Below, piece by piece: positions 2,851 through 39,077 of a stretch of DNA of 40,320 bases; position 1 is the stretch's first letter, and each line of letters opens with the position of its first letter. The DNA lies in the UHGV virus genome UHGV-1432856; one strand, given 5' to 3'. Both the position numbers and the translations under genes were made by a program. The DNA is from a virus. The notes under the pieces are model-generated. The model saw nothing but the letters and a program-made list of their open reading frames with translations, was not told the DNA's origin and searched no databases.

Positions 2851-2855
2851 GGGAT

Positions 2856-6670: not shown

Positions 6671-6680
6671 GAAAAACAGG

Positions 6681-6814
<134 letters not shown>

Positions 6815-10684: not shown

Positions 10685-11851
10685 TTAAACCCCTTTGACA
10701 ACGTCAGCATTGACCTGTGGAACCCCGATTTCAGCGGCCAGATTCATGGCGGCTATCACCAGGTTACTGACGGCCAGCGGATACAGCAGGCTGACCATAT
10801 TTTTACGATGACTTCCCGGATTGCTCAGGCGGGCACGTATGGCATCCACTGCGCTGGCGTCCATAATGTCCGTCAGTTGTTTACCGGCCCGTTGCAGTTT
10901 GAACGTCAGAAATTCTTCAAGGTTATTGTCCAGAGGCAGAAGTTCGACCACCTCACAGCGCTGAACGACTTCACGGACTTCCATATTGCGTTCAGACAGT
11001 TTTGTCGCCAGTTCCGGCTGGCCAATCAGCACGATGGACAGCAGTTTTTTGAAACCGGACTCCAGCTCAAAAAAGCGTTTGAGGTGTTTCAGTGTCGGAA
11101 TGGGCAGACTGTGGGCCTCCTCAATCACCAGAACGTGGCTGAACCCCGCCTGGCTGCTGTCTTTCAGGACGCGATGCAACTGGCGAAAGCGGGCGTCCTG
11201 ACTGCGTCTGATGCTTTCCAGTGGTGCGATGGTACTGATAATGGCTTCGGCAATCGCTGCTGCCTTCAGGGTTTTCCCTTTCACATCGTTGTCTTCCATA
11301 GCGATGATGTATGGCTCGATAACAATTACCGGCGCATTCTCGCGGTTGATACGTTCAGTCAGGTCGCGGCGCAGCGTGGATTTACCCGCACCGGACTCAC
11401 CGATGACGGCCATAAACCCACCATGACGGGCTGTCTGGTACAACGCCTCACGCACGTAGCGAATGTCCGGGGTGGTGAACACATCATCAGAACCCTGCAT
11501 GGCTTCGTCGGCGAACGGGTCACGGAAAAGACCAAACGCTTTTTTGGTTGCTGGAAATAACACCTGTTTTTTGAGTAACATATTCTCTTCCTCACTGAGG
11601 CTCGTTTTATCTGTGGTACCCGCTGTACGGGGCGTGGCCGCGCCCTGTACAGCATCAAAACTCTTCGTTGTATCAATCCCCTGACTTTCCAGCCAGGACG
11701 CAAGACGCCGGCGCACTTCTCCGGGGCTGGTGCGGGGCCACGCGTTATGATTCACAATCTGGGCCAGCGTGGCCTCAGAAACATCGACAGCTCTCGCCAC
11801 CACCGCCTGTGGAATACGGGCCTCTTTCAGTTGCTGCTTCAGTACCAGCAT
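10685..11851 (-). CDS. B: transposition ATPase B (AAA+ P-loop, N-terminal HTH)
   Basis: Walker A GESGAGKS, Walker B-like VLVIEEAH; immediately downstream of the transposase; start taken at the Met preceded by GAGGAGGG, 10 nt after the A stop. Confidence 0.8.
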   Translation of the reverse strand: MLVLKQQLKEARIPQAVVARAVDVSEATLAQIVNHNAWPRTSPGEVRRRLASWLESQGIDTTKSFDAVQGAATPRTAGTTDKTSLSEEENMLLKKQVLFPATKKAFGLFRDPFADEAMQGSDDVFTTPDIRYVREALYQTARHGGFMAVIGESGAGKSTLRRDLTERINRENAPVIVIEPYIIAMEDNDVKGKTLKAAAIAEAIISTIAPLESIRRSQDARFRQLHRVLKDSSQAGFSHVLVIEEAHSLPIPTLKHLKRFFELESGFKKLLSIVLIGQPELATKLSERNMEVREVVQRCEVVELLPLDNNLEEFLTFKLQRAGKQLTDIMDASAVDAIRARLSNPGSHRKNMVSLLYPLAVSNLVIAAMNLAAEIGVPQVNADVVKGV

Positions 11852-11861
11852 GTTTCCCTCC

Positions 11862-14559: not shown

Positions 14560-14868
14560 TTACAAACGACTACCTGAAATAACTCGTTGGTTGATTTCGT
14601 TAATACGATCCTGTGCACGCGCCATCTCGTGACTGTGAGCCATGGCGATCTGTAGTAACTGGATTCCCGGTGCGAAACGTCCGTTCTCTAATTTCATGGC
14701 CAGTCCCTCTTCAATAAGGGTATTAAGTGCTCGATTGATATTCGCCGGGGACTCCCCCAGGGCTGATGCCAGTTCACCGTTAGAAACACCGTTCAGAGCA
14801 TGACCGCGTAGAGCTTTGAGTACACGTAGGATGCGGGTCCCAGAACTGGAAATATTTACTTTACTCAT
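14560..14868 (-). CDS. winged-helix DNA-binding protein (IclR-N/MarR-like HTH)
   Basis: LRVLKALRGHALNGVSNGELASALGESPANINRALNTLIEEG HTH pattern; start taken at MSKVNISS (14866-14868); the track's longer start at 14931 would overlap the upstream gene. Confidence 0.5.
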   Translation of the reverse strand: MSKVNISSSGTRILRVLKALRGHALNGVSNGELASALGESPANINRALNTLIEEGLAMKLENGRFAPGIQLLQIAMAHSHEMARAQDRINEINQRVISGSRL

Positions 14869-14920
14869 GTCACATTTCCATTTTTGCAATATGTGATAAC
14901 CTGTTGCATATGTGGAAAAT

Positions 14921-15109
14921 TTATGCCGCATTTGACGTGGGTTTTAATCCCAGTTTTACGGCAATTTCATGGGCTTTGCCGTAACGAGCTTTGGTCTGTC
15001 CATTGAGAACACGATAGACCTCATTGCGGCTGTAGCCGTGTTCTTCGGCCCAGCGGGTAAACGTGATACCACGCTGACGGAAGAGATTTTTAACTTGTTC
15101 GGAAGTCAT
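14921..15109 (-). CDS. small HTH DNA-binding protein in the Cro/Ner position
   Basis: 62 aa, first gene of the leftward operon, divergent from the XRE repressor; AGGAG RBS; not clearly homologous to Mu Ner, assigned by position and HTH-like pattern. Confidence 0.55.
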   Translation of the reverse strand: MTSEQVKNLFRQRGITFTRWAEEHGYSRNEVYRVLNGQTKARYGKAHEIAVKLGLKPTSNAA

Positions 15110-15159
15110 TGTTGTCTCCTTTGTTGATGCAATGATGTTTGTTTTATATGTGATAGATT

Positions 15160-15179
15160 ATGAGAACTATTGTTCTCAT
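15160..15179. promoter_or_regulatory. putative operator: inverted repeat ATGAGAAC-TATT-GTTCTCAT
   Basis: Perfect 8-bp arms with 4-bp spacer, inside the 86-bp divergent region between the Cro/Ner-like and repressor genes. Confidence 0.45.
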
Positions 15180-15195
15180 TGTCAATGAGGTTTAT

Positions 15196-15621
15196 GTGAA
15201 TTTTGATTCTCTTTGCGCGTCGCGGTTCAAAGCTGAGCGTTCGCGGTTATCACTCAAGCAGGCTGAAGTAGCAGCCCTTTGTGGCGTTTCAAGAGAAATG
15301 TGGGGGAAATATGAACGAGGGGTTGCTGTTCCCGGAGGTGAGTTACTTGCAGCCTTTGCAAGAATTGGGGCCAATGTACAGTTCATTCTTACCGGGGAGT
15401 CATCAGGTATAACTTTATCACGTGATGAAATGGAGTTACTGCAGCACTACCGGCAGGCACCATTACAGGTCAAAGGTTCAGTTTTGTCGGCCTTGACTAC
15501 TGGCTCCTCCAGAGAACGGGCGGAACAGGTTATTCATGGAGATGTTCTGGGGAATGTTATCAAAGGTAACGTAACCATAGGAACAGGTGGAATAATGAAC
15601 AAAAATACCAAGAGAAGATGA
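15196..15621 (+). CDS. XRE-family HTH transcriptional regulator, probable prophage repressor
   Basis: HTH LSLKQAEVAALCGVSREMWGKYERG; start placed at GTG 15196 (GAGG at 5 nt spacing); the track ORF starts at ATG 15160 inside the palindrome; divergent from the early operon. Confidence 0.65.
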   Translation: MNFDSLCASRFKAERSRLSLKQAEVAALCGVSREMWGKYERGVAVPGGELLAAFARIGANVQFILTGESSGITLSRDEMELLQHYRQAPLQVKGSVLSALTTGSSRERAEQVIHGDVLGNVIKGNVTIGTGGIMNKNTKRR

Positions 15622-16604
15622 GTAAAGAGAAGCAAACAGTTAACGGGGATGTGGGTAACGTTGTCAGCGGTGATGTTACCATTCATAACTATTCTGCTGA
15701 CATACTTCCTTCGGCCCAGCAACCAATTTCGTTGCTGCAAAAACGCGATTTACACAGATTGATGGATGAATTGGTTGATCTGGGGGAAAGTAAGCGCGAG
15801 CTATGGATGACGATCCACACGAAACTTAATACCAAAACAGTTAATGAAATGACTGCGGCTGATTATCATGGTGCGGTTGAGATCCTTCAGAGATATGCAC
15901 AACAGATCCAGAATATGAAGGACTGTAATCTTCTGGTCAGCAAAATAATGGCGCTTACTGACCCTGGGTATCGTCTTGACCGTGACAGATACTGTCTGAA
16001 GCATTTCGGTACAACCCATCTTAAAGGCCTAGACAAAGAGCAGTTGCAGGCTGTGTTTGGTTATTTTGATGATCTGCTGAATATTCGTGATGAGAGTAAA
16101 ACTCTATCACCTCCATCGGAAAGCGGTGCAAAATCAGTCGCAACTGTACCAACCAGAAGCCGGAAGCCTCATGTAGTAGTGTTGGGGGGAGTGTTAGTTC
16201 TTGTAGCAATATTTTTCGTGGGAATGATTGTGTTCGCTGGTAAATGGGGAAATGCCAAAGCAGTAGCTTCTACTGAAACCAGCGTTTTTAACATTAAAAC
16301 CAACGATAAAATAATAGAAGATTCCATCCCCGCACTGCGCAGCATGTTTCCAGGGTTAAATAAGTACTCAGATGATTTCCATTCGGTTTCAAGCTACAAG
16401 CAAAAAACGGGCTGGCATACCCTTAAATTTACTGTATCAGCAAAGGCATCCGTCCCCGAAAATTATAGTGTTAAGGGCAAGGTTTGTTACATTAACATAA
16501 GCCCTGATGGTAGTTATGCTCGGGTTTTGACTGCTCCATGTCGTTCACTGCTACTTGATCAGCAAAGCACTCCTGACAGTAAATACCGTTTTATTCTTAA
16601 ATAG
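15618..16604 (+). CDS. single-pass membrane protein of unknown function, translationally coupled to the repressor
   Basis: 328 aa; ATGA overlap with the repressor stop; one TM helix (VVVLGGVLVLVAIFFVGMIVFA) between a roughly 185-aa N-terminal and 120-aa C-terminal domain; N-terminal GDV/GNV repeat; AT-rich. Confidence 0.6.
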   Translation: MSKEKQTVNGDVGNVVSGDVTIHNYSADILPSAQQPISLLQKRDLHRLMDELVDLGESKRELWMTIHTKLNTKTVNEMTAADYHGAVEILQRYAQQIQNMKDCNLLVSKIMALTDPGYRLDRDRYCLKHFGTTHLKGLDKEQLQAVFGYFDDLLNIRDESKTLSPPSESGAKSVATVPTRSRKPHVVVLGGVLVLVAIFFVGMIVFAGKWGNAKAVASTETSVFNIKTNDKIIEDSIPALRSMFPGLNKYSDDFHSVSSYKQKTGWHTLKFTVSAKASVPENYSVKGKVCYINISPDGSYARVLTAPCRSLLLDQQSTPDSKYRFILK

Positions 16605-16694
16605 AAAATAACAGCTGAATTACCATGGGATCAGAAAAAAGACAAAGGCGGCATCATGCTGCGTTCTGAAATTTTAATGTAAAAGGTGATGAAC

Positions 16695-17276
16695 ATGGCA
16701 GGGATTCAGGTTATCGCAGGAAGTTTTCCTAAAGGGTGGGCAAGCATGGGGTTCGGTACCATCGTGTTTGCCAAAAAACCAAAACAAGGCTTTCCTGAAA
16801 ATATTGTATTAAATCTGAAAGAAGAGCTTTTATCGATTGAACTTGCGGATAGTGAAGAGGAAAGCCGTATAGGTAAGGCGGCAGGCGCAGGTTTGCTTGG
16901 TGGATTAATCTTTGGTGGTGCAGGGTTGGTCATTGGAGGTTTGCTTGGTGCGGCGGACAAGACGAAAAAAACTATCACTTTTAAGGCAATGTTTACGGGA
17001 AATAGGTTACTTCTGGCTAAAACAGATTCAAAAACTTTTGTAAAACTTCAGTCAATTGCTGCTGATAATGCCCATAACGCATCTGTAATCAACATGAAGC
17101 AAACTAACAGGGGCGATGTTTCTTCTCGTAAACAACTAACAGAAAATCCACAGCAGCAAGACTTACCTGCGCCCGCTACAACAGTAAAAATGACTGCCAA
17201 AGATAAGTTAGAATCGGCTCTTGGGCTGGGAATCATCGTTATAGCTGTTTGGGCAATAATACACTTCTTTTTTTAG
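16695..17276 (+). CDS. glycine-zipper membrane protein of unknown function
   Basis: GKAAGAGLLGGLIFGGAGLVIGGLLGAA glycine zipper plus C-terminal hydrophobic helix LGLGIIVIAVWAIIHFFF; start chosen at ATG 16695 (AGGTG upstream); AT-rich. Confidence 0.55.
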   Translation: MAGIQVIAGSFPKGWASMGFGTIVFAKKPKQGFPENIVLNLKEELLSIELADSEEESRIGKAAGAGLLGGLIFGGAGLVIGGLLGAADKTKKTITFKAMFTGNRLLLAKTDSKTFVKLQSIAADNAHNASVINMKQTNRGDVSSRKQLTENPQQQDLPAPATTVKMTAKDKLESALGLGIIVIAVWAIIHFFF

Positions 17277-17278
17277 TG

Positions 17279-17302
17279 CAGCCCTTCAGGGCTGTTTCTG
17301 TT
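17279..17302 (+). terminator. Rho-independent terminator ending the repressor-linked cassette
   Basis: CAGCCC-TTCA-GGGCTG hairpin followed by TTTCTGTT, 3 nt after the stop at 17276. Confidence 0.5.
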
Positions 17303-17313
17303 CAGGAGGTATC

Positions 17314-17790
17314 TTAAGGATTATCCGGGGCGTTTTCCTGTTTGCCGTACTTCGGAGACGAACAACATTCTGTTGGCTGACCGGTGAGTTTACGTAACTC
17401 CTTCATGAGCAGCTCCTGATCGTAAACTGTCATCAGTGCCGCAATGGTGGCATGCAGTGCATCGGGCAGTATCCAGGGTTGCCGGCCCGTGGGGCATATA
17501 ACATCCAGCAGCTCATTCGTCCGACAGATACGCTCCTCGCCGTATGACAACAGGCCCTGTCCCGTGTATTCCTCCAGCCTGATCACTGTGCCACCCCGTG
17601 GCTTCTGCCAGGTCGTCAGATCTTCGCCATTCATACGGCGCTCATTCTCCACGTCAGCAGCATCGACAATGACGCTGTTTCCGAGTTCCTGTTTCACCAT
17701 CTCTTCTATCCGCGCCAGTACGTAACTTTTACCGCTGCCCACAGGACCGGACACAGTGACAGTGATGACCGGATTCAGTGTGTGCGTCAT
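17314..17790 (-). CDS. small P-loop protein, NMP/shikimate-kinase-like
   Basis: 158 aa; Walker A GPVGSGKS at residues 15-22 followed closely by VIVDAADVE, resembling small P-loop kinases; strong GAGGAG RBS; convergent with the cassette. Confidence 0.55.
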   Translation of the reverse strand: MTHTLNPVITVTVSGPVGSGKSYVLARIEEMVKQELGNSVIVDAADVENERRMNGEDLTTWQKPRGGTVIRLEEYTGQGLLSYGEERICRTNELLDVICPTGRQPWILPDALHATIAALMTVYDQELLMKELRKLTGQPTECCSSPKYGKQENAPDNP

Positions 17791-17849
17791 ATCGTATTCT
17801 CCTCTGTGAATAATTCATCGTTTATCCTGCACATCCCGTATCCCCGGCT

Positions 17850-17870
17850 CTCTTAACGCGCTTTAAAATC
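17850..17870 (+). promoter_or_regulatory. degenerate copy of the late-region motif, upstream of the lysis genes
   Basis: CTCTTAA-CGCG-CTTTAAAATC, about 50 nt upstream of the ATG at 17921; compare 31232-31253 and 37583-37604. Confidence 0.3.
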
Positions 17871-17920
17871 CTTCGCGCCCTGTATTTGTGATGCTGTCTC
17901 CACCAGATAAGGAGACACAC

Positions 17921-18214
17921 ATGAAAAACCTGAAAAAATTCATTCCCCCTGTTAAAAAACCTCGCCTCAGCGGCTGGCTGCTGACCTCAGTGCTGTTGCT
18001 GGGCACCATCGCTCTGGTCTCACCACAGCAGCTGCCTGTTGTGATCTACAAGCTGGCACTCATCACGCTGGCAGCAGTGCTGGGTTACTGGCTTGACCGT
18101 TCGCTCTTCCCCAAAGCCCGTCCCGGTCAGTACCTGAAACATGACGACAGGCTGATGGCTGAAGGGCGTTTCCCGGTACAGACCGGCCTTCACCTGGTGT
18201 TTTCTGCTGCGTAA
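17921..18214 (+). CDS. small two-TM membrane protein, putative holin
   Basis: Start MKNLKKF with AAGGAG RBS; two hydrophobic helices; directly upstream of the endolysin; the track ORF starts at 17888. Confidence 0.45.
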   Translation: MKNLKKFIPPVKKPRLSGWLLTSVLLLGTIALVSPQQLPVVIYKLALITLAAVLGYWLDRSLFPKARPGQYLKHDDRLMAEGRFPVQTGLHLVFSAA

Positions 18215-25177: not shown

Positions 25178-25391
25178 GTTTTCTCTCTTCAGGCGGGTGA
25201 TTTATCATTGCCAGCGAATGAGGGGCTGTATTACCTTTATAAAGGCTTTACAGCCTCTGTTTTATAACCGCCTCCGGTTCACCGCATTGCTTTCCCTGTC
25301 CTTCTCCCCTGATGTTTTCTAAAGCAGATTAAAATCGCCGGGCCTGCATTTCTCACAAACTGTCTCCGACAACATAACGCGGGACAGCAAA

Positions 25392-28986: not shown

Positions 28987-30403
28987 CTATCTGCATGGTC
29001 CCGAAACCATTGAGGTGGAAAACGGAGCCCGCCCGGTTAAAACGGTGAAATCTGCCGTTATTGGCCTGATTGGTACCGCCCCGATGGGGGATGTCAATAC
29101 GCTGGTACAGTGCCTGTCTGAGAAAGACGCAGCGGCATTTGGCAGCCAGTTCACCGGCTTTACCATTCCGCAGGCGCTGGATGCGATTTATGACCATGGT
29201 GCAGGTACCGTTCTGGTCATTAACGTCCTCGACCCGGCGAAACATAAAACGGCGATCGAGGATGAGGTGGTTACCTTTGACAAATCGACAGGGCAGGCCA
29301 GACTGGCGCATCCGGTTGTCGCTAATGTGGTGGTGAAAAACAGTGAAGGCAGCACCACCCACACGGCGAACACGGACTACCGTGTTGATGCGCAGGCGGG
29401 TGTGCTCACGAACCTGGGCAAGGCTATTGAGGCCGGTGGCAGCGTGAAGGTGAGCTATGAGTACGCGGACCCGTCGAAGGTGACTGCGGCGGACATCATC
29501 GGCGGGGTGAATAGCGCCGGAAACCGAACTGGCATGAAGCTGCTTAACGACAGCTTCAACCTGTACGGCTATTTCGCCAAAATTCTGATTGCGCCGGTGT
29601 TCTGCACCCAGAAGAGTGTCGCAGTTGAGCTTATCGCCATGGCAGAGAAGCTGGGCGCGGTAACCTACATTGATGCGCCTGTCGGTACCACCTTTGCACA
29701 GGCTCTGGCAGGTCGTGGCCCGGAAGGCACCATCAACTTCAATACCAGCTCCGACCGCGTCCGTCTGTGCTATCCGCATGTGAAGGTATATGACCCGGTG
29801 ACAAACACAGAGCGTCTGGAGCCGCTCAGCCAGCGTGCAGCAGGTCTGCGTGCCAGAGTCGATCTGGACAAGGGCTACTGGTGGTCATCCTCCAATCAGG
29901 AGATTCTGGGGATCACCGGCGTGGAGCGCCAGCTGTCCGCGATGATTGATGACCCGCAGAGTGAGGTGAACCTGCTTAACGAACAGGGGATCACCACGGT
30001 ATTCAGCAGTTACGGCAGCGGCCTTCGTCTGTGGGGTAACCGGACGGCAGCATGGCCAACGGTCACCCATATGCGTAACTTTGAGAACGTTCGCCGCACC
30101 GGTGATGTGATCAACGAGTCCATTCGTTATTTCAGCCAGCAGTACATCGACATGCCGATTACTCAGGCGCTGATTGATGCACTGACGGAGTCGGTCAACG
30201 CCTACGGTCGCAAAATGACTGGTGATGGTGCGGTACTGGGCTTCCGTTGCTGGTTTGATCCGGCCCGCAATCCGGAGACGGAGCTGGCCGCCGGGCACCT
30301 GTTGCTGAGCTACAAATATACGCCACCACCGCCGCTGGAGCGACTGACGTTTGAGACTGAGATCACCTCGGAATACCTGTTAACCCTGAAAGGGGGCAAC
30401 TGA
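28976..30403 (+). CDS. contractile tail sheath protein (Mu L-like)
   Basis: 475 aa; immediately followed by the tube gene. Confidence 0.85.
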   Translation: MAANYLHGPETIEVENGARPVKTVKSAVIGLIGTAPMGDVNTLVQCLSEKDAAAFGSQFTGFTIPQALDAIYDHGAGTVLVINVLDPAKHKTAIEDEVVTFDKSTGQARLAHPVVANVVVKNSEGSTTHTANTDYRVDAQAGVLTNLGKAIEAGGSVKVSYEYADPSKVTAADIIGGVNSAGNRTGMKLLNDSFNLYGYFAKILIAPVFCTQKSVAVELIAMAEKLGAVTYIDAPVGTTFAQALAGRGPEGTINFNTSSDRVRLCYPHVKVYDPVTNTERLEPLSQRAAGLRARVDLDKGYWWSSSNQEILGITGVERQLSAMIDDPQSEVNLLNEQGITTVFSSYGSGLRLWGNRTAAWPTVTHMRNFENVRRTGDVINESIRYFSQQYIDMPITQALIDALTESVNAYGRKMTGDGAVLGFRCWFDPARNPETELAAGHLLLSYKYTPPPPLERLTFETEITSEYLLTLKGGN

Positions 30404-30924
30404 TGTCAAAGATTGAGATAAACCGCATCACGAATGCCAACATCTATCTGGATGGTACTAACCTGCTGGGACGGGCTGAGGAAGTTAAACTCCCCGATGT
30501 CTCCATGATTATGCAGGAACACAAGGCGCTGGAGATGGTGGGTAAGGTGGAACTCCCGGCTGGTTTTGACAAACTGGAAGGCGAAATCAAATGGAACAGC
30601 TTTTACCGCGATGCGATGCTGTCTGCCGCGAACCCGTACAGGTCGCTGGCACTGCAGTGTCGTTCCAGCGTCCAGCGCTACAGCTCGCAGGGGCTGATTG
30701 ACGAAATCCCGCTGGTCACCTTCCTGACGATTATGTTCAAGAAGAACCCGCTGGGGACGTTCAAACAGCACGAGAACGCCGAGTTCTCCAGTAGCTTCAC
30801 CTGCACGTATATCAGACAGGTACTGGATGGTGAAGAGCTGCTGCAACTGGACTATCTGGCCAACATCTTCCGGGTCGGCGGTGTTGATCAACTGACTGAC
30901 TACCGTATCAATATCGGGGGCTGA
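30403..30924 (+). CDS. tail tube protein (Mu M-like)
   Basis: 173 aa; ATGA-type overlap with the sheath gene. Confidence 0.8.
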   Translation: MSKIEINRITNANIYLDGTNLLGRAEEVKLPDVSMIMQEHKALEMVGKVELPAGFDKLEGEIKWNSFYRDAMLSAANPYRSLALQCRSSVQRYSSQGLIDEIPLVTFLTIMFKKNPLGTFKQHENAEFSSSFTCTYIRQVLDGEELLQLDYLANIFRVGGVDQLTDYRINIGG

Positions 30925-30926
30925 CG

Positions 30927-31208
30927 GTGAGTGTTGAACTGACGGATAAAGGAGGACGATGTGCGGCACTGGGCATGTCAAATGGTACGTGGTTTACCCT
31001 CCTTGATATTCCGGGGGTGGAAACCCTTTTTAATACCCGTAAAACCAATGACCCGATTGACTGCACACGTTCAAAGGCCCGCAAACTGGCGGATTTGATT
31101 GAAGCATGGGAGCCTCCCGACCACTGGTTCTCCGGCATCGGCAAATCTGAGGGAAAGACGCTTCTCATCGCTTTCCTGCGTAACTGCAAGGGGTTTCGCA
31201 CTTGCTGA
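30927..31208 (+). CDS. hypothetical protein (93 aa)
   Basis: GTG-start ORF after the tube gene; alternative ATG at 30975; followed by a terminator hairpin. Confidence 0.35.
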   Translation: MSVELTDKGGRCAALGMSNGTWFTLLDIPGVETLFNTRKTNDPIDCTRSKARKLADLIEAWEPPDHWFSGIGKSEGKTLLIAFLRNCKGFRTC

Positions 31209-31214
31209 CATCAC

Positions 31215-31240
31215 AGGGGCTCCGGCCCCTTCTTCTTAAT
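31215..31240 (+). terminator. Rho-independent terminator-like hairpin
   Basis: AGGGGC-TCCG-GCCCCT perfect 6-bp stem followed by TCTTCTTAAT. Confidence 0.45.
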
Positions 31241-31253
31241 CTCCTTTAATATC
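31232..31253 (+). promoter_or_regulatory. conserved late-region motif CTTCTTAA-N3-CCTTTAATATC (copy 1)
   Basis: 19 of 22 nt identical to 37583-37604; about 50 nt upstream of the chaperone gene start at 31306. Confidence 0.4.
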
Positions 31254-31305
31254 CGTCACGCGCTTCTCCCGACATACTGCCCTGAACTTACACAGGAGCA
31301 CAATC

Positions 31306-31641
31306 ATGTCACAGACCCCATCCGATACTTTTAAATTGTCTTATCCCTTCACCACTGCTGCAGGCACCAGAATTGAGCTGGTTGAACTGAAACGCCTGAC
31401 GGTAAAAGACCTGAAGCAGGTGCGCAAAATCAGCAAAAACCCGGCAGACTGGGACGAACCGCTGATTGCCCGCAGTACTGGTCTTCTCCCGGAAGATCTC
31501 GACAATATGGATCTGGCTGATTACCTGCAGTTACAGAAACGATTTCAGCTCATCACGGGGATGGGTGAGAGCAACCAGGGCGCTGACGCAGGCGCAGGGG
31601 CTGCTGGCGAGATGGTTCCGGTTTCAGCCGGGGGAGATTGA
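31306..31641 (+). CDS. tail assembly chaperone (upstream of the tape measure)
   Basis: 111 aa acidic protein between tube and tape measure genes; GGAG RBS. Confidence 0.6.
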   Translation: MSQTPSDTFKLSYPFTTAAGTRIELVELKRLTVKDLKQVRKISKNPADWDEPLIARSTGLLPEDLDNMDLADYLQLQKRFQLITGMGESNQGADAGAGAAGEMVPVSAGGD

Positions 31642-31723
31642 TGCCCTCGATACTGACGATCTGGAGATGTGGCTGGAGCAGGCTGAAGAGCAAATAAAAA
31701 GCGAGTACGGCGACAAATCATAG
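31466..31723 (+). CDS. overlapping +1-frame ORF, possible frameshift extension of the tail chaperone
   Basis: Second ORF overlaps the 3' part of the chaperone gene in the +1 frame and runs 82 nt past its stop; a G5 run lies at 31630-31634. Confidence 0.35.
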   Translation: MPAVLVFSRKISTIWIWLITCSYRNDFSSSRGWVRATRALTQAQGLLARWFRFQPGEIDALDTDDLEMWLEQAEEQIKSEYGDKS

Positions 31724-31798
31724 TACAGACAGCCGCCAGTAGCGGCTGTTCTGCGTTATCCCCTCACGTCTTTTCACCTTCCCCGGAGGTTAACCACT

Positions 31799-34750
31799 AT
31801 GTCGGGACAGTTTTCAGTCGGCGTTGTTATCGGCGGGATGATTGGTAGCACATTCCGTTCTGCAATGAGCGGTACCCGCCGTGCGCTTGATTCCCTGAGC
31901 GATACCTCACGCCGCCTGCAGGAACGTCAGAACGCTTTAACCCGTGCAACAGAACGTTATGGTCAACTGGGTTCTTCCCGGATGCAGCATCTCAACAGCG
32001 AGCTGCTGCGGGTAAGCCGCACCATGGAGCAAATTGAGCGCCAGCAGCGCCGTCTGTCAGCGGCATCCGCTACCAGTGATGCGCTGAAAGCTAACCGCAT
32101 GGCGCTGTATGGTCAGGGGATTGAAGCGTATGGCATGGCACAGACTGTTTATCATACGGTTTCCCCTGCCGTTCAGCAGTCCATGTCTTTTCAGGACAAA
32201 ATGATTGATATGTCGATCACCGCAAAATATGACAATAAAACGCGGGATGCACTTGCCGGACAGATAAAAGGCTGGGCGCTTAAATACAATCAGTATCAGG
32301 ATGAGCTGCAGGAGGCGGTGGGTTCACTCATCAGCGACAATATTGATAATGTGTCAGATATCGGTTTTCTGATGCCGGATATTGCCCGCGCGGCAACGGC
32401 AACACGCACGTCTGCTCAGGACTGGGCAAAAGTGGCCGCAGTCTGGCAAAACTCCCTGAAAGGTGCGGCCAGAGATTTTGGTGCCGTTCAGAATATTATG
32501 GCTTATGCCGGTGACCAGGGGTCATTTGAAATCCCGGATCAGGTCAAGTGGATGCAGTCCCTGGCCCCAATGATGGCGGGTATTGCCAGTGGAAAAGAGG
32601 CTGTTGCTGAAATCGGGGCCAGTCTCCAGATAGCAAAAATCGGTGCAGGTTCCACCGACGAAGCAGCCAATAATTTTAAAAACTTTCTTACCAAAATTTT
32701 TGCCCGCGATACTCAGAAACAGTTTGCTGATCTGGGTATTGATTTGCAGGGATCTATTGCGAGTTATAAAGCTGCGGGGATCTCTCCGATTGAAGGGATG
32801 TTGAGTGTTATAGAACGTTACCTCAATGCCAAAAGCCCCGAAGCGCTGGCCGGCTTCAAATCAGCCATGAAAATAAAGAATGATACGGCAAGAGATGAGG
32901 CACTTCAGGCTCTGGCGAAAAACTTTGGTCTGGGCGATATGTTCGCGGATATGCAGGTCATGGCATTTATCCGCCCGATGCTGGCCAACATGGACAGATA
33001 TCGAGAGATCCGTGCCGGTGCTCTCAGGGCTGCGGATAACGATTTGCTTGCCAGTGCTTATGATCAGCGGCTGAAATCTCCCCTTGAAGCCACTAAAGCA
33101 CTTATGGTCAGCAGTCGTGATCTGGCAATTACGCTGGGCGATCAATTAGCTCCATCTTTTATTTCTCTGACTCAGGAACTGCTTCCACTCATTCAGGGGG
33201 CAAAACACTGGGTAGCGACTCACCCGCAATTTGTCAGTGGGGCTTTTAAGCTCATCAGTGCGCTCCTTGCGATTAAGATAGCGACTGTTGGTCTCAAACT
33301 GGGGCTGAATCTCCTTATTTCCCCCTTTGTAAGTGTCTGGAAAAATGCTGTTTTACTTCGGGCCAACTGGCTTCGTCTGTCGCTCGCACTGGGGCAAGGC
33401 GGTAAGCTCCGCTGGCTGGTGACCGGATTTAGCGCCGTCGCCAAAGGAGCCAGAACACTGAGTGGCGTGCTCTCCGGGGGGCTGGTTCGCGGAATTATGC
33501 TCGCCGGACGTGCTGTTCTCTGGATTGGACGTGCGCTGATGATGAATCCCATCGGTCTCGTTATCACCGCTGTCGCGGCAGCAGCTTACCTTATCTACCG
33601 CAACTGGGGGGCAGTCAGTGGCTGGTTTAAACAGCGCTGGGCAGACATTCAGGAAGCCTTTAACGGCGGCATTGTGGGAATTGGTAAGTTGCTGATTAAC
33701 TGGTCGCCGGCAGGCCTGCTCTATAAAGCCTTTGCGGCTGCGCTGAAATATTTCGGCGTTGCTCTGCCGGCAAAGTTCACCGACTTCGGTGGCCATCTTA
33801 TCGACGGTCTGATTAACGGTATCAAAAACAAATGGGGGTCGCTCAAATCCAGTGTAACCGGAATGGGTGACAGCATCAGTAGCTGGTTTAAACAGTGCTG
33901 GGCTGACATTCAGGAAGCCTTTAACGGCGGTATCGCGGGAACTGGTAAGCTGCTGATTAACTGGTCGCCGGCAGGTCTGCTCTATAAAGCCTTTGCAGCT
34001 GCGCTGAAATATCTTGGTGTTGATCTGCCGGCAAAGTTCACCGACTTCGGTGGCCATCTTGTCGACGGTCTGATTAACGGTATCAAAAACAAATGGGAGT
34101 CGCTCAAATCCAGTGTAACCGGAATGGGTGACAGCATCAGTGGCTGGTTCAGCGAAAAGCTGGGCATTCATTCGCCGAGCCGCGTGTTTATGGGCTTTGG
34201 TGACAATATCGCGCAGGGGGCCGCCATTGGCCTGCAGCGGACCACTCCGCTTGCAGCTCTGGCCGGGCAGCGAATGGCCAGTGAACTGCTCCCCAAAATG
34301 CCCGTGAGCATTCAGGGGCCAGAAATACGGGATAACACTTCAGGTGTTCGCTTCAGTATGCCGTTGCCCGATATCAATGGGTTTATGTCGTCTGCTAAAA
34401 ATGCGATCGGAGCCGTAATCAATAGTTTGTCTTCCATGCCCGCTATTCCGCTCTCCACCCGGGCATCGATTTTACCAGGGCAACGTCTGGCAAATGAGAT
34501 GACACCGGATGTTCCCCGTATCCCCTCGCCTGAAATCCTGGCTGCCGGATATTCAGGCCGTGGTGCAGCTGCAACCGGCGGTGGAACGTCTGGTGGTATC
34601 CAGGTCAGCTTTAATCCTCAGTTTTTCCTCAATGGCAGGGAAACCACAGCGCCTGCCGGACTGACTGGCGCCCTGAATATGAGCCTGCATGAGCTGGAAA
34701 AAATGCTGGAGCGTCTGCTGGCTCAGAAACAACGTAAGGAGTACCGCTGA
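31799..34750 (+). CDS. tail tape measure protein
   Basis: 983 aa, helical and repeat-rich; between the chaperone and N-like gene; GGAGG RBS. Confidence 0.85.
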   Translation: MSGQFSVGVVIGGMIGSTFRSAMSGTRRALDSLSDTSRRLQERQNALTRATERYGQLGSSRMQHLNSELLRVSRTMEQIERQQRRLSAASATSDALKANRMALYGQGIEAYGMAQTVYHTVSPAVQQSMSFQDKMIDMSITAKYDNKTRDALAGQIKGWALKYNQYQDELQEAVGSLISDNIDNVSDIGFLMPDIARAATATRTSAQDWAKVAAVWQNSLKGAARDFGAVQNIMAYAGDQGSFEIPDQVKWMQSLAPMMAGIASGKEAVAEIGASLQIAKIGAGSTDEAANNFKNFLTKIFARDTQKQFADLGIDLQGSIASYKAAGISPIEGMLSVIERYLNAKSPEALAGFKSAMKIKNDTARDEALQALAKNFGLGDMFADMQVMAFIRPMLANMDRYREIRAGALRAADNDLLASAYDQRLKSPLEATKALMVSSRDLAITLGDQLAPSFISLTQELLPLIQGAKHWVATHPQFVSGAFKLISALLAIKIATVGLKLGLNLLISPFVSVWKNAVLLRANWLRLSLALGQGGKLRWLVTGFSAVAKGARTLSGVLSGGLVRGIMLAGRAVLWIGRALMMNPIGLVITAVAAAAYLIYRNWGAVSGWFKQRWADIQEAFNGGIVGIGKLLINWSPAGLLYKAFAAALKYFGVALPAKFTDFGGHLIDGLINGIKNKWGSLKSSVTGMGDSISSWFKQCWADIQEAFNGGIAGTGKLLINWSPAGLLYKAFAAALKYLGVDLPAKFTDFGGHLVDGLINGIKNKWESLKSSVTGMGDSISGWFSEKLGIHSPSRVFMGFGDNIAQGAAIGLQRTTPLAALAGQRMASELLPKMPVSIQGPEIRDNTSGVRFSMPLPDINGFMSSAKNAIGAVINSLSSMPAIPLSTRASILPGQRLANEMTPDVPRIPSPEILAAGYSGRGAAATGGGTSGGIQVSFNPQFFLNGRETTAPAGLTGALNMSLHELEKMLERLLAQKQRKEYR
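33613..34134 (+). repeat. in-frame tandem duplication, 2 x 261 bp, inside the tape measure gene
   Basis: SGWFKQRWADIQEAFNGGI...GIKNKWGSLKSSVTGMGDSIS repeated with few substitutions at an exact 261-nt offset (33622 versus 33883). Confidence 0.8.
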
Positions 34751-35634
34751 TGTTTGCCGTACTGGGTGATATTGAGTTTGAGCTGATTACCTACTGGGAC
34801 GGCTTCGAGGCCACGTTCGGCGTCGATTATGCGGAGCATGCCCGCATCGGGGGTAAGCCTGGCCTGCAGTTCGTCGGCGACAGGCTGGACGAAATCCAGA
34901 TAACTCTGGTTTTCCATCAGCATTATTGTGTACCCGATGTGGAGCTGGCGAGACTGCGAACAGCCATGAAAGCCCATCAGGCACTGGCGCTGGTCTTCGG
35001 CAACGGTGACTATCGTGGCTGGTTCGTGATTACCGATGTGACCGCAACCAGCGAGCAGACAGACAGCACCGGTAACGTGCTGGCTGTCAGTGCCACCGTG
35101 TCTCTCCGGGAATACACCGGTGATCCGAAAAATCCTCTGCAACCACCGGCAATACGCACGAAGCTCCCGGGTGTCGGGGCGGTCTCCGGTGCCATTCCTT
35201 CACCTTCAGGGGTGGCGCAGTTCATCCGCAACGGCGTCAACTATGCGAAACAGGCGCAGTCTGTACTCCAGACCACTATCAGCGCCGTTCGGGTGACACA
35301 GAAAATGAAGGATAACCCCGTTGTCGCACTGACCCGTGTGCCGGGGCTGATGAGCGGACTGGGTAATATCTCCGGGGCTCTGGGGAAAAGTGTTCCGGCG
35401 TTTAACGCACTCTCTGAATCCATGCCCGATGCCATCAGTCTGGCCAGAACAGCCAGCGAAGCAGCCACGTATGTACAGCAGGCACAGTCTGCGCTGAGTG
35501 GTGTGGACAAAAGAAATATTGCAGGTGCTCTGGATACCGTTTCCGGGCAGCTTAACGCCGCCGGCACAGCATTCAACCGCATGTCTCCGGGATTAAGTGC
35601 AATGGCCGCCAGAATACTGACGAGGAGTGTGTGA
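34750..35634 (+). CDS. DNA circularisation protein (Mu N-like)
   Basis: 294 aa; directly downstream of the tape measure gene as in Mu; N-terminus MFAVLGDIEFELITYWDGFE fits the N family as recalled. Confidence 0.75.
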   Translation: MFAVLGDIEFELITYWDGFEATFGVDYAEHARIGGKPGLQFVGDRLDEIQITLVFHQHYCVPDVELARLRTAMKAHQALALVFGNGDYRGWFVITDVTATSEQTDSTGNVLAVSATVSLREYTGDPKNPLQPPAIRTKLPGVGAVSGAIPSPSGVAQFIRNGVNYAKQAQSVLQTTISAVRVTQKMKDNPVVALTRVPGLMSGLGNISGALGKSVPAFNALSESMPDAISLARTASEAATYVQQAQSALSGVDKRNIAGALDTVSGQLNAAGTAFNRMSPGLSAMAARILTRSV

Positions 35635-35846
35635 TGTTTCTTGAACATGTTACCCGTGACGGAGAGCGCTGGGATTCGCTGGCATGGCAGTACTACGGTG
35701 ACCCGCTGGGCTATCCCCGGATTATTGCCGCCAATCCGCACGTGGCCATCACGCCGGTGCTGCCCTCCGGGCTGTTGTTACTGATCCCGGTGATTGAGAC
35801 TGAAGAAGCCCGTACAGAAGAGGATATTGCCCCATGGCTGAGATAA
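35631..35846 (+). CDS. small tail protein (tail protein X-like)
   Basis: 71 aa; overlaps both neighbours; short conserved-looking N-terminal region. Confidence 0.45.
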   Translation: MMFLEHVTRDGERWDSLAWQYYGDPLGYPRIIAANPHVAITPVLPSGLLLLIPVIETEEARTEEDIAPWLR

Positions 35847-36988
35847 ACAGCACTGCGCAAGTCACATCAGCGTTAACCGGCGTCAGCGATGTGCTGACAC
35901 CGGTGTTCACTCTGTGGTATCTGCAGAAAAACATCACCTCTGATATCGCGCCTTATGTCACCCGTGTGACCTGGAGCGATAACATCAAAAATGAGTCCGA
36001 TACCATTGAGGTGGAGCTGGACGACACCGATGGCCGCTGGCTGGATAAGTGGTATCCGGGCAAGGGTGACACGCTGACGCTGAAAATGGGCTATCAGGGC
36101 GAGAAGCTGCTGTCCTGCGGTACGTTCTCTATAGACGAGATCGAAGTGAGTTCGCCCGCTTCCGTTGTTTCTATCCGTGGGGTGGCCACCTCGGTTAACA
36201 GTGCTCTGCGGACTAAATCCAGCCGTGGTTTTGAGAACACCACGCTGGCAGCTGTTGCGGGGCGGATTGCCAGAAAGCACCGGCTGAAACTGGTGGGCAG
36301 CATTGAGTCCATCAGAATCGACCGGGTGACCCAGTATGCTGAAACCGACGTGGGTTTTCTGCGCCGGCTGGCCAGCGAGTATGGTTATGCAGTGAAAGTG
36401 GTCAGTGACCAGCTGATTTTTTCTCATCTGGCCACACTGCGCAGTCAGGAGACGGTCAGGCAGTTAAAACCGCAGGATGTGGCCCGCTTTTCCCTGCGTG
36501 ACACCATCAACCGGGTCTATAAATCTGCAAAGGTAAAACACCAGAAAAGCAGCAGTAAAAAACTGATCGTCCACGAAGCTGATGGTGGTACCCGTGAAAG
36601 CGACAAAAAGCTCAAAGGTGGTAAGGTTACCAGCGCTGACTCACTTAAAGTTAACAGCCGCGTCAGCGACCCGGACAGTGCCCGGATTAAAGCGGATTCA
36701 GCACTGGCCAGACATAACGAATACCAGCAGAACGGCTCCCTGACGCTGACGGGAACACCTCAACTGACAGCAGGCAACAAAATTGAACTGGTGGGTTTTG
36801 GGCAGTTATCCGGGCCATGGCTCATAACCACTGCCCGCCATGCGTTTGACCGTAACAGCGGCTACACCACAGAGCTGGAAGTGGCACGGGGGCCAGTCAC
36901 AAGAGGGAAAAAACAAAAAACTCAGAAACTCACGGTTTATCACCCGGATGGCAGTACATCGACGGTGATTAAGGAGAAGAAAAAATGA
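35834..36988 (+). CDS. baseplate hub protein (Mu P / late control D family)
   Basis: 384 aa; position before the gpV-like spike gene. Confidence 0.7.
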   Translation: MAEINSTAQVTSALTGVSDVLTPVFTLWYLQKNITSDIAPYVTRVTWSDNIKNESDTIEVELDDTDGRWLDKWYPGKGDTLTLKMGYQGEKLLSCGTFSIDEIEVSSPASVVSIRGVATSVNSALRTKSSRGFENTTLAAVAGRIARKHRLKLVGSIESIRIDRVTQYAETDVGFLRRLASEYGYAVKVVSDQLIFSHLATLRSQETVRQLKPQDVARFSLRDTINRVYKSAKVKHQKSSSKKLIVHEADGGTRESDKKLKGGKVTSADSLKVNSRVSDPDSARIKADSALARHNEYQQNGSLTLTGTPQLTAGNKIELVGFGQLSGPWLITTARHAFDRNSGYTTELEVARGPVTRGKKQKTQKLTVYHPDGSTSTVIKEKKK

Positions 36989-37581
36989 CTGGTGTCACTC
37001 GTCAGGTCGGTACGGTCAGTGCCGTTGATGCCGACAGGGTTCAGGCCCGCGTTCGTCTGCCTGAATGCGATAACCTGCGCACAAACTGGCTTAACGTGCT
37101 GCAGCGTAATACCCAGGATAACAAAGATTACTGGCTCCCTGACGTGGGGGAGCAGGTTGAGGTGCTGCTCGATGCCAACGGCGAGGATGGTGTTATTCTG
37201 GGCGCGGTGTATTCAGACGTCGATAAACCACCGTTCAGTGACAAAAATATCCGGGGAACCCGGTTTGCTGATGGTGCAGAGTACAGCTACAACCGGAAGA
37301 CGCACACTCTGACCATCCGGGGCGGCATTGAGCATATTGTCATTGAGTGTGGTGCTGATGTGGTATTGAAAACACAGAAAGCCACGATTGACGCACCGGA
37401 AACCGAACTTACCGGAGATCTGCGTGTCAGGGGAAAGCTGATTTACGAAGGAGGCATGGCGGGTTCTGGTGGTAAAGGTGTTACCGCGACCATCCATGGC
37501 AATATCGAGATTAAAGGGAATGCCCATGCCACGGGCAGTATGCTGTCTGATGGCGAAAACTCCAGCCACCACTCCCACTGA
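36985..37581 (+). CDS. baseplate spike protein (gpV-like)
   Basis: 198 aa; N-terminal OB-like region, Gly-rich C-terminus; synteny. Confidence 0.7.
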   Translation: MTGVTRQVGTVSAVDADRVQARVRLPECDNLRTNWLNVLQRNTQDNKDYWLPDVGEQVEVLLDANGEDGVILGAVYSDVDKPPFSDKNIRGTRFADGAEYSYNRKTHTLTIRGGIEHIVIECGADVVLKTQKATIDAPETELTGDLRVRGKLIYEGGMAGSGGKGVTATIHGNIEIKGNAHATGSMLSDGENSSHHSH

Positions 37582-37582
37582 G

Positions 37583-37604
37583 CTTCTTAAACGCCTTTAA
37601 TATC
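37583..37604 (+). promoter_or_regulatory. conserved late-region motif CTTCTTAA-N3-CCTTTAATATC (copy 2)
   Basis: 19 of 22 nt identical to 31232-31253; about 30 nt upstream of the ATG at 37636; followed by GGGGGC-AATACT-GCCCCC hairpin. Confidence 0.4.
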
Positions 37605-37635
37605 AGCGTTCCCGCACGGGGGCAATACTGCCCCC

Positions 37636-37983
37636 ATGAAAACGACCTCAGTATTCTGGCAACCAGCCCTGCAGGCTCCCGGCGAAATTGTCCGGGGGCT
37701 GGATGATATCCGGCAGGCGATTCAAATTATCCTGCGGACTCCCCGCGGCAGCGACCCGCATCGCCCGGAGTTCGGCAGCAATCTGCATCTTTATATCGAC
37801 TGGCCTGTAGACCGGGCCATTCCGCATGTGGTGCGCGAATCCGTCGATGCCATCCGGCGCTGGGAGCCCCGCTGCCAGCTTATGTCAGTTAAACCCGCCG
37901 TCGACGGCGAACATCTTACGCTCCGGGTGAGCTGGAAAGGCTCAGACGGACAGACCCGGACTCAGGAGCTGCTATGGCGCTGA
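37636..37983 (+). CDS. baseplate protein, GPW/gp25 lysozyme-like family
   Basis: 115 aa; size and position typical of GPW/gp25 between spike and J-like genes. Confidence 0.65.
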   Translation: MKTTSVFWQPALQAPGEIVRGLDDIRQAIQIILRTPRGSDPHRPEFGSNLHLYIDWPVDRAIPHVVRESVDAIRRWEPRCQLMSVKPAVDGEHLTLRVSWKGSDGQTRTQELLWR

Positions 37984-39077
37984 CAGAACCCGATTTTATT
38001 GAACGCGATGCCGACAAAATCACGGCAGAAATGATTGCGAAGTATGAAGCGGATACCGGCAAAACGCTGTACCCGGCACAGGCAGAACGTCTGCTGATTG
38101 ATCTGTGGGCCTATCGCGAAATGCTGGTCAGGGTTGCGGTACAGGAGGCAGCAAAGCAGAATCTGGTCGCCTTTGCCCGTGAGCCGATGATTGATTACCT
38201 CGGTGAACTGGTTGGTGTATACCGTCTTGCCGCGCAGCCTGCCACCACCACGCTCCAGTTCTCCGTAGATGAGGCACTGGCCATTGATGTGCTGATCCCG
38301 GCAGGCACCCGCGTCAGCGCTTCCGACAGCGTTATTTTTGCCACCGATACAAATGTGGTACTGAAGGCCGGATTGCTGCTGGTCAATGTCACGTCCACCT
38401 GTACCGAACCCGGTACCGCTGGTAACGGCTGGCAACCTGCGCAGGTCAGTCAGTTACTCGATGAGATTGATAACGTCGACCTGCTGGTGAGCAATCTGAC
38501 GGCCAGTTCCGGCGGTTCAGAACAGGAAGACGATGACAGGCTCCGGGAGCGTATCAGGCTGGCCCCGGAGTCATTCACCAATGCCGGAAGCCGTGGCGCA
38601 TACCGCTTTCATGCCATGCAGGCCCATCCCAACATTGTCGATGTTGCTGTGCTTTCCCCGGTTCCCGGGACCGTAGATCTGTATCCGCTGCTCAGTACCG
38701 GTCTGCCGGACGGCGGTGTTCTCACGCTGGTAGAGAGTTTCTGCTCTGATGAGAAAGTCAGGCCACTCACTGATACAGTGCGGGCTAAAACACCAGTGAA
38801 GGTGGATTACACCATTGAAGCCAGGATTACGATCTATCGTGATCAGGATGCCAGGTCTGTAAAAGATGCCGCTAACAGCGCCATACAGAACTGGGTGGCA
38901 TCACGTGCCGCCACGCTGGGGCGTGATATTGTCCCCAGCCAGATTATCAGTGCATTGTCCGTTTCCGGGGTGTACCAGGTTGAACTGGTGACACCGGCAC
39001 TGAGGGTGGTGGCAGAAAACGAATGGGCAAACTGTACGGCAATCACTCTTAACATGACTGGAGTGTCTGATGACTGA
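37974..39077 (+). CDS. baseplate J-like protein (Mu gp47-like)
   Basis: 367 aa; overlaps neighbours; synteny. Confidence 0.75.
   Translation: MALTEPDFIERDADKITAEMIAKYEADTGKTLYPAQAERLLIDLWAYREMLVRVAVQEAAKQNLVAFAREPMIDYLGELVGVYRLAAQPATTTLQFSVDEALAIDVLIPAGTRVSASDSVIFATDTNVVLKAGLLLVNVTSTCTEPGTAGNGWQPAQVSQLLDEIDNVDLLVSNLTASSGGSEQEDDDRLRERIRLAPESFTNAGSRGAYRFHAMQAHPNIVDVAVLSPVPGTVDLYPLLSTGLPDGGVLTLVESFCSDEKVRPLTDTVRAKTPVKVDYTIEARITIYRDQDARSVKDAANSAIQNWVASRAATLGRDIVPSQIISALSVSGVYQVELVTPALRVVAENEWANCTAITLNMTGVSDD

Follow-up and report, generated by a model that had tools for sequence, protein, structure and literature searches.

In the virus genome UHGV-1432856, analyzed as a single stretch of 40,320 nucleotides (the window), a 22-nt motif recurs in front of late operons. 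This motif is probably the half that an activator binds in each of four late promoters, sigma-70 type and activator dependent, of a BcepMu-like prophage. The prophage, a transposable, Mu-like element of Escherichia coli (genus Bcepmuvirus), is closely related to Escherichia phage PhiKM, with 98.4% identity over positions 30000-38000. An earlier note on this DNA had suggested that the motif is a shared binding site or promoter for an activator of the Mor/C family. That proposal is supported at the sequence level by every feature of the Mu C and Mor promoters that could be tested, namely, a -10 hexamer, no -35 element, a dyad at about -42.5, sites located before the lysis, head, and tail operons, and a gene of the Pfam family PF08765 on the early arm.

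The two copies originally described, CTTCTTAATCTCCTTTAATATC at 31232-31253 and CTTCTTAAACGCCTTTAATATC at 37583-37604, share 19 of 22 positions and lie where they had been reported, as does the third copy, (T)CTCTTAACGCGCTTTAAAATC, found at 17849/17850-17870 in front of the lysis cassette. The third copy had been considered degenerate; it indeed matches in 15 of the 22 positions but includes no indel, aligns without gaps, and retains a perfect TTAA-N6-TTAA core. All three copies are real and located in the rare gaps of the late arm, but they are not the complete set: a listing of all late-arm gaps yielded a fourth, overlooked copy, TTTTCTAAAGCAGATTAAAATC at 25315-25336, within the 214 nt of noncoding sequence that precede the head protease/scaffold gene. 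From the end of the motif, it is 52, 31, and 50 nt to the starts of the tail chaperone (TAC), gpW, and holin genes, respectively, within the range of 30 to 55 nt given previously. However, the motif, although real, makes up just the upstream half of a longer conserved element. Exactly 19 nt past the 22-mer, all four copies carry a previously overlooked -10-like hexamer followed by a G. The shared unit consists of the dyad T-N-TTAA-N6-TTAA-N-A, in which the half-sites are 10 bp apart, a distance of 23 nt, the hexamer nAnnCT, and the G (Table 1). The four units occupy four of the five late-arm noncoding gaps of at least 50 nt, each before the start of an operon; the fifth gap, between TAC and the tape measure gene, is mostly the frameshift extension of the chaperone gene.

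Table 1. Late promoter units and other features of the window (coordinates are positions in the window; start sites are predicted)
Feature	Position	Strand	Details
Late promoter 1 (lysis), activator element	17849-17870	+	Dyad TTAA-cgcgct-TTAA at 17853-17866, predicted -49 to -36
Late promoter 1, -10/start	17890-17902	+	GATGCT at 17890-17895, TGT before it; predicted +1 A17902; holin ATG 17921
Late promoter 2 (head protease/scaffold operon), activator element	25315-25336	+	Dyad CTAA-agcaga-TTAA at 25319-25332
Late promoter 2, -10/start	25356-25368	+	CAAACT at 25356-25361; predicted +1 G25368; head protease ATG 25392
Late promoter 3 (TAC/tape measure operon), activator element	31232-31253	+	Dyad TTAA-tctcct-TTAA at 31236-31249
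Late promoter 3, -10/start	31273-31285	+	CATACT at 31273-31278; predicted +1 A31285; TAC ATG 31306
Late promoter 4 (gpW/baseplate operon), activator element	37583-37604	+	Dyad TTAA-acgcct-TTAA at 37587-37600
Late promoter 4, -10/start	37617-37638	+	AATACT at 37624-37629, in the loop of GGGGGCA/TGCCCCC; predicted +1 A37636
Terminator-like hairpin GGGGCtccgGCCCC with T-rich tail	31215-31230	+	RNA fold -12.8 kcal/mol, z = -3.7
Mor/C-family transcription activator (129 aa)	6843-7232	-	Early arm; Pfam PF08765
GemA	7204-7653	-	Early arm
AAA ATPase	10685-11890	-	Early arm
rve-type transposase	11862-13631	-	Early arm
Late arm	from ~17.9 kb	+	Holin, SLT endolysin, terminase, portal, head, sheath, tube, TAC, tape measure, baseplate

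The frequency of these patterns in the window was compared with that expected by chance. When up to 3 mismatches were allowed, the 22-mer pattern matched only the tail and baseplate copies (2 matches versus 0.00 expected). The core TCTTAA-N4-CTTTAA-N-ATC is present with zero mismatches at all three of the sites noted first, and TTAA-N6-TTAA occurs exactly three times in 40 kb, at these same three sites, versus 0.17 expected. The complete architecture, NTWA-N6-TTAA-N23-NANNNT, yielded 5 matches when both strands were searched, compared with 0.11 ± 0.32 (maximum, 2) in 300 dinucleotide shuffles. Four of the matches are the plus-strand units, and the fifth is the palindromic lysis dyad read on the opposite strand. 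There, a CAGGAT hexamer is located 23 nt from the dyad (17824-17866, minus strand), directed toward a divergent P-loop gene (17314-17790, minus strand). The lysis dyad was considered as a bidirectional activator site, but this match was treated as chance, with a probability of about 1/16.

The promoter geometry was derived by setting the predicted +1 at 7 nt after the hexamer, which yields a purine at all four promoters. With these predicted start sites, the dyad spans -49 to -36 with its center at about -42.5, and the 22-mer extends from -53 to -32. The hexamers are weak, agreeing with TATAAT at 2 to 4 of 6 positions, and a -35 element is missing from all four promoters, the best match to TTGACA at spacers of 16 to 19 nt being 0 to 3 of 6 positions. 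A generic sigma-70 scan of the window did not call any of the four sites, the RefSeq annotation lists no regulatory feature at them, and no Rfam family matched in the window at the gathering thresholds.

The late promoters of Mu provide the closest point of comparison. At Plys, PI, PP, and Pmom, there is a -10 but no -35 element, and Mu C binds a 16-bp imperfect dyad centered at -43.5; the sequence between -52 and -34 is needed, and the bases that immediately follow the dyad are critical (PMC2582627, Jiang and Howe 2008). Our measurement of Pmom (TTAT-N6-ATAA, 24 nt, TAAGAT) places its center at -43.5, in agreement with that report. Like the Mu C and Mor promoters, including Pm, the prophage units combine a sigma-70 -10 with no usable -35 and an imperfect dyad of ~16-18 bp near -43. 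The half-sites likewise lie one helical turn apart and overlap the -35 region, and the dyad is followed by conserved bases, A-(T/G)-(C/A)-C in the prophage. The hexamers are similar as well: CATACT-G and CAAACT-G in the prophage compare with TAGACT-G measured at Plys and CAAACT-G at PI, so that the head promoter carries the PI hexamer. Furthermore, both phages have four such promoters per genome, located before lysis, head, and tail/baseplate genes, and an activator that belongs to the Mor family of Pfam.

Conversely, several features separate the prophage from Mu. The half-sites of its dyad are TTAA/TTAA, whereas Mu C recognizes a box of the TTAT/ATAA type, and the architecture pattern, applied to Mu as a negative control, recovered none of the Mu late promoters. 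Because the dyad and the recognition helix of the activator (see below) both differ and the pattern misses the Mu promoters, the prophage dyad is a different specificity class and not a Mu C box. Unlike in Mu, promoters are located before TAC and between gpV and gpW, the activator gene lies on an early arm that is divergent from the late arm, and there is no mom gene. A fifth, mom-like site was considered before the Dam methylase gene that is present in PhiKM and in E. coli EC958, where CTAA-accaca-TTAA is followed at 23 nt by CATCAT (PhiKM, ~30810-30870, minus strand; EC958, 5172-5370, minus strand); the window lacks this region. This candidate was not accepted because in Klebsiella phage KP12 the dyad and the hexamer are separated by 28 nt, not 23 nt.

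Conservation in related phages, which the earlier note had set as a test of the motif, was assessed in the full genomes of PhiKM, KP12, BcepMu, phiE255, and Ralstonia YO107_2. To these were added 15 further prophage loci, found through the DUF2190 head protein in one-genome-per-species contigs, from Buttiauxella, Mixta, Pseudocitrobacter, Enterobacter, Pectobacterium, Erwinia, Brenneria, Pantoea, Xenorhabdus, Intestinirhabdus, Burkholderia pyrrocinia, and a deltaproteobacterial metagenome-assembled genome. Together with the more distant phages described below, the motif is kept at syntenic positions across five bacterial orders, but its flanks are not. With two exceptions, every lineage has the element before its counterparts of the holin, head protease, TAC, and gpW genes. 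In one Enterobacter locus (L009), the only homolog found was that of the head protease, with no element before it, and the deltaproteobacterial genome (L020), which serves as the outgroup, has no element and contributes 0 sites. The lysis element is kept before the holin gene in 17 genomes or loci, the tail element before TAC in 19, and the baseplate element before gpW in 13. A qualifying head element was identified in 19 of the 21 genomes or loci that have a head-protease homolog, with the Burkholderia and Ralstonia head sites re-anchored.

Spacing within the unit is rigid across the family. The right TTAA and the hexamer are 23 nt apart without exception, and 6 to 46 nt separate the hexamer from the start codon. 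KP12 retains the dyad and the hexamer, although its spacers and upstream flanks have diverged strongly at constant length. The same architecture is associated with syntenic genes in BcepMu, phiE255, B. pyrrocinia, and Ralstonia YO107_2, and genome-wide scans with the search pattern recover essentially only these sites in each genome. Across 53 unique sites, collected from 20 related genomes or loci and the window, the information content is concentrated in the left half-site (1.53 bits per column), the right half-site (1.86), and the hexamer (1.08), compared with 0.58 in N6, 0.26 in the 19-nt spacer, and 0.34 in the 5' flank. The A at position 2 and the T at position 6 of the hexamer are present in 53/53 sites, as required by the search, but other columns were left unconstrained by it. 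These include the G after the hexamer (50/53), the A two positions after the right TTAA (52/53), the T two positions before the left half-site (42/53), and the A at position 3 of the left half-site (53/53). These conserved, unconstrained columns extend the dyad to T-N-TTAA-N6-TTAA-N-A.

The architecture is also found in more distant phages. In Pasteurella AFS-2018a, TTAA-N6-TTAA, the 23-nt distance, and the hexamer occur before the lysis, head protease, TAC, and gpW genes of a codirectional, Mu-like layout, in which the early region is organized and annotated differently. Additional tandem TTAA-containing repeats (TTTAAAGCGAATTAAAGCGATTTAAACTGCATTTAAAGC) are present upstream of the canonical head-protease site of this phage, at ~16700-16800, and may be extra activator sites. 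In Pseudomonas Komp_PAO1_1, the search pattern matches exactly 4 times in 40 kb, both strands included. Three of the matches precede the lysis, TAC, and gpW genes, and the fourth is located at the start of the head-gene region.

The candidate activator is a confident member of the Mor family (PF08765, E = 1.3e-43, 107 of 107 profile positions), and its closest solved structures are those of Mu C (9l0x and 9vw8) and Mor (1rr7 and 9l0y). Its identity to Mu Mor and C amounts to no more than 30-32%, and the homologs in Pasteurella AFS-2018a and Komp_PAO1_1 are 43-46% identical to it. In tblastn searches with five Mor/C queries, the window, KP12, and BcepMu each yielded one locus, and in the Mu control, both Mor and C were recovered. 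Because a single Mor/C locus is found per phage, a one-activator cascade appears to operate in this family, unlike the three-phase, Mor-to-C cascade of Mu, in which two paralogs act at the middle (Mor) and late (C) stages. A 2025 preprint on Mor/C activation complexes describes binding as a tetramer and identifies R98, S110, Q113, Y115, Q116, and R120 as the residues of Mu C that contact the major groove. In the alignment, S110 and Y115 are conserved, and position 113 is occupied by W (F in Komp_PAO1_1) rather than by the Q of Mu C or the T of Mu Mor. The recognition helix reads SLQWVY in the window, SQPQIY in Mu C, and TFNTVY in Mu Mor, and the pattern VS[LM]Q[WF][VI]Y is present in all TTAA-type phages and specific to the TTAA clade.

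Thus, the same helix is observed with the same dyad and a different helix with a different dyad, a co-occurrence that points to Mor as the binding protein. A change in the half-site that might be expected with a Mor of about 45% identity was not found; the phages concerned keep both TTAA and the recognition helix, so that the covariation is seen only in the contrast with Mu. In the mechanism that we propose, a single Mor/C-family protein would be made from the early, minus-strand operon and bind the dyad as a dimer or tetramer. Through contacts with RNA polymerase (region 4 of sigma and the C-terminal domain of the alpha subunit [alpha-CTD]), it would substitute for the missing -35, and Mor-dependent transcription of the lysis, head, tail chaperone/tape measure, and baseplate operons would then be switched on in parallel.

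Several observations weigh against this interpretation. It is through analogy and co-occurrence that Mor, and not a different conserved protein of the phage, is taken to bind the dyad. The regular expression used to pick the sites fixes some of the columns, so the information content is partly imposed, and because the enterobacterial sequences include many close relatives, the sites do not count as independent events. The TAC sites of the BcepMu type have a degenerate half-site (TTAA...CTGA or TTAG...TCAA) and are either misfits to the consensus or weaker promoters. Finally, the prophage dyad is 1 bp nearer to the -10 than that of Mu (23 nt versus 24 nt in Pmom; center at -42.5 versus -43.5), an offset that lies inside the uncertainty of the start sites, those of the prophage being predicted.

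Among the alternatives, the one that survives best, although we consider it unlikely, retains the late promoters but assigns the TTAA dyad to some other phage protein or to an AT-preferring nucleoid protein of the host, with Mor acting elsewhere or indirectly. The early arm encodes several further helix-turn-helix (HTH) proteins, and candidates include an IclR-type HTH protein (14560-14931, minus strand), small HTH proteins, and GemA, which is also kept beside Mor in BcepMu and Mu. However, a dyad centered near -42.5 in a promoter without a -35 is the specific signature of the Mor/C promoters, and Pasteurella AFS-2018a keeps the dyad, Mor, and the recognition helix despite its different early region. 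The strict TTAA half-sites around a GC-rich N6 are, moreover, unlike a generic AT-tract or nucleoid protein site.

More improbable is that the units are constitutive or host-regulated sigma-70 promoters that require no phage activator, the motif serving as an UP-like element for the alpha-CTD. The position of the motif corresponds to the region of the proximal UP subsite, A/T runs (TTTAAAATC) are present, and the lysis hexamer is preceded by an extended -10-like TGT. Yet a constitutive promoter before the holin and endolysin genes would kill lysogens, the weak hexamers are not compensated by a -35, and conservation outlines an exact dyad around a GC-rich center rather than an A-tract. Transcription data from a BcepMu lysogen bear on the same question. 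In the differential RNA sequencing of an uninduced biofilm of Burkholderia cenocepacia J2315 (PMC4603805, Table S3; coordinates converted as J2315 = 609955 - BcepMu), no transcription start site (TSS) was reported at the predicted late promoters, even though a neighboring phage promoter was detected. Close to the predicted sites, the only TSSs in the sense orientation were two ahead of gp20 (primary and secondary, 21 and 54 nt upstream) and a third inside gpV. Silent late promoters fit the absence of the activator, but this is weak, negative evidence and not a positive test. A search for TSS data from E. coli EC958 found none. No earlier description of late promoters or Mor sites of the BcepMu type was found in the searchable literature; the original BcepMu paper (Summer et al. 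2004, J Mol Biol), which that search did not cover, may mention them.

There is still less reason to regard the motif as a signal in the late mRNA (for processing, stability, or translation) or as a leftover, without function, of an intergenic segment that was duplicated. Across the whole unit (the 22-mer and ATACTGCCC), the tail and baseplate copies closely resemble each other, as could result from duplication, and stable hairpins are associated with the gaps. The core, however, is a dyad of the DNA type, whose 4 A-T pairs would form no stable RNA helix; its distance is fixed to the hexamer rather than to the start codon; it has no Rfam match; and it is kept across the five bacterial orders in intergenic DNA that is otherwise unalignable.

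Late promoters of phages P2, 186, and P4 resemble those of the prophage in that the lysis, head, and tail operons are served in parallel, in a myovirus with tail genes of the P2 type, and in that a small phage activator replaces the -35, as predicted for the prophage. The P2-type (Ogr/B/Delta) promoters are characterized by TGT-N12-ACA centered near -55 and are activated by a zinc-finger protein, whereas the prophage activator is an HTH protein of the Mor family. Despite the P2-like tail and baseplate genes of the prophage (gpV, W, J, I, D, U, and X), a P2/186-type promoter with an Ogr/Delta-type activator was rejected as next to impossible, given that the dyad is centered at about -42.5, not -55, and that no TGT-N12-ACA is present upstream of any of the four hexamers in the 60 nt ending 15 nt before each (~-87 to -28).

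If the units are Mor-type late promoters, the baseplate promoter has an unusual consequence. Its hexamer ends 6 nt before the ATG of gpW in 13/13 BcepMu-type loci and 7 nt before it in the Pasteurella and Pseudomonas phages. In the window, translation can begin only at the ATG at 37636, the next in-frame start being at codon 65; there is no Shine-Dalgarno sequence, and the predicted +1 is the A of the ATG itself. A real promoter with this geometry would therefore produce a leaderless gpW mRNA, tentatively in every lineage. In BcepMu and Ralstonia, the promoter of the head protease gene shows this leaderless-type geometry as well.

Inverted repeats are a further feature of some late promoters. 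GC-rich repeats of at least 5 bp around the hexamer were identified at 14 of the 53 unique sites, whereas 2000 shuffles gave 1.9 such sites on average and never more than 6. The sequence of the arms varies by lineage (GGGGGC/GCCCCC, GCGGC/GCCGC, GCCCTG/CAGGGC, and ATGCCGTC/GACGGCAT versus ATGCCGCC/GGCGGCAT), and a repeat with the hexamer in its loop recurs in most lineages, for example, at 30795-30828 of locus L002. When folded as RNA, the hexamer-flanking hairpins have predicted energies of -12.6 to -17.3 kcal/mol (z = -3.3 to -4.2) and pair the AUG of gpW; the corresponding hairpin of the window (37617-37638) has -15.8 kcal/mol and z = -3.3. At the lysis promoter (17896-17916), the sequence GTCTCC, located after the hexamer and upstream of the predicted +1, pairs with the Shine-Dalgarno sequence GGAGAC (-9.2 kcal/mol, z = -3.5), and this pairing is seen in enterobacterial lysis promoters. 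The pairing at the head promoter (25362-25385, GTCTCCG...CGGGACAG) is weaker and not significant (-7.1 kcal/mol, z = -1.4).

These folds were evaluated further through the predicted accessibility of the ribosome-binding site in RNAs initiated at the promoter and in RNAs that read through from upstream. For promoter-initiated and read-through RNA, respectively, accessibility was 0.49 and 0.31 for holin, 0.56 and 0.34 for the head protease, 0.56 and 0.39 for TAC, and 0.80 and 0.40 for gpW, and the read-through values were below the control, a shuffled extension, in 16/16, 11/14, 14/17, and 8/12 sequences; the effect is moderate, and the values are folding predictions on mutually related sequences. 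A tentative possibility, which we hold to be less probable than not, is that the late promoters double as translational insulators. A GC-rich segment at about -18 to -1 would pair with the start codon or Shine-Dalgarno sequence and close the read-through RNA, leaving the Mor-initiated RNA open, with the leaderless gpW (and the head protease of the Burkholderia and Ralstonia phages) as the extreme case. Such a mechanism would resemble the fold-back inhibition of IS10/Tn10, a protection against transcription from outside, where sequence upstream of the element's own start pairs with the ribosome-binding region and blocks only read-through RNA. The predicted hairpins of the prophage have their 5' arms in -18 to -1 and their 3' arms over the AUG or the Shine-Dalgarno sequence; unlike in IS10, the genes concerned are phage late genes, not a transposase.

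A hairpin of a different kind, terminator-like with a T-rich tail (Table 1), abuts the tail promoter, and its T-tract runs into the left flank of the dyad. At the corresponding position, most relatives have a hairpin of different sequence, including KP12, Pectobacterium, Brenneria, Xenorhabdus, BcepMu, and Ralstonia. This arrangement suggests that transcription of the head, sheath, and tube genes ends at the hairpin and restarts at the tail promoter.

Other parts of the window are of separate interest. Homology to PhiKM begins only at position 6681, and the preceding segment, 1-6681, is part of a different, lambdoid prophage located to the left of the Mu-like one, in which a lambda-type tape measure gene (PF06791 and PF09718) is found at 3880-6441 on the minus strand. 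Because the homology starts only there, the transposable phage seems to have inserted into, or beside, the tail module of another prophage. A second region, 15161-17326, has no counterpart in PhiKM, which carries the Dam methylase and other genes at this location. It encodes proteins of 328 and 196 aa without a Pfam match, ends with a terminator-like hairpin (17278-17295), and gives the impression of a swap of accessory genes where the immunity and lysis regions meet. Between the divergent HTH genes 14921-15109 (minus strand) and 15160-15621 (plus strand), a near-consensus sigma-70 promoter faces the early arm (15157-15185, minus strand; TTGACA, 17 nt, CATAAT; 11 of 12 matches) and is probably the early promoter/operator region of the lysis-lysogeny switch. 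Finally, the holin gene (17921-18214) ends at a TAA codon (18212-18214) where PhiKM reads TTA (Leu), the sole difference in 360 nt. The stop codon shortens the 116-residue protein by its final 19 residues, among them a hydrophobic C-terminal segment, and this copy of the prophage may therefore be lysis defective.

Prophages of this type are common. The tail-promoter region was detected in 622 of 5426 complete E. coli genomes (~11%), always on the chromosome and in up to 3 copies per genome, with an identity of at least 99% in 576 of the 622 carriers, which include the ST131 reference strain EC958. Relatives of the prophage are present in Klebsiella, B. cenocepacia, Ralstonia, Pasteurella, and Pseudomonas. 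The elements themselves are of a known kind, that of the Mor/C-type late promoters, with a half-site specificity of their own and, apparently, a single activator. The findings amount to a testable definition of the late-gene switch, T-N-TTAA-N6-TTAA-N-A, 23 nt, nAnnnT, and G, for BcepMu-type phages and the wider Mor clade. This definition enables automatic annotation of late operons and predicts a cascade with one activator in place of the two of Mu. It also provides a natural specificity variant, with W or F at the position of Q113 of Mu C combined with the TTAA half-site, for comparison with the cryo-electron microscopy structures of Mor/C-RNA polymerase complexes. If true, the leaderless gpW mRNA and the insulating hairpins would constitute a posttranscriptional layer in the control of late genes in transposable phages.

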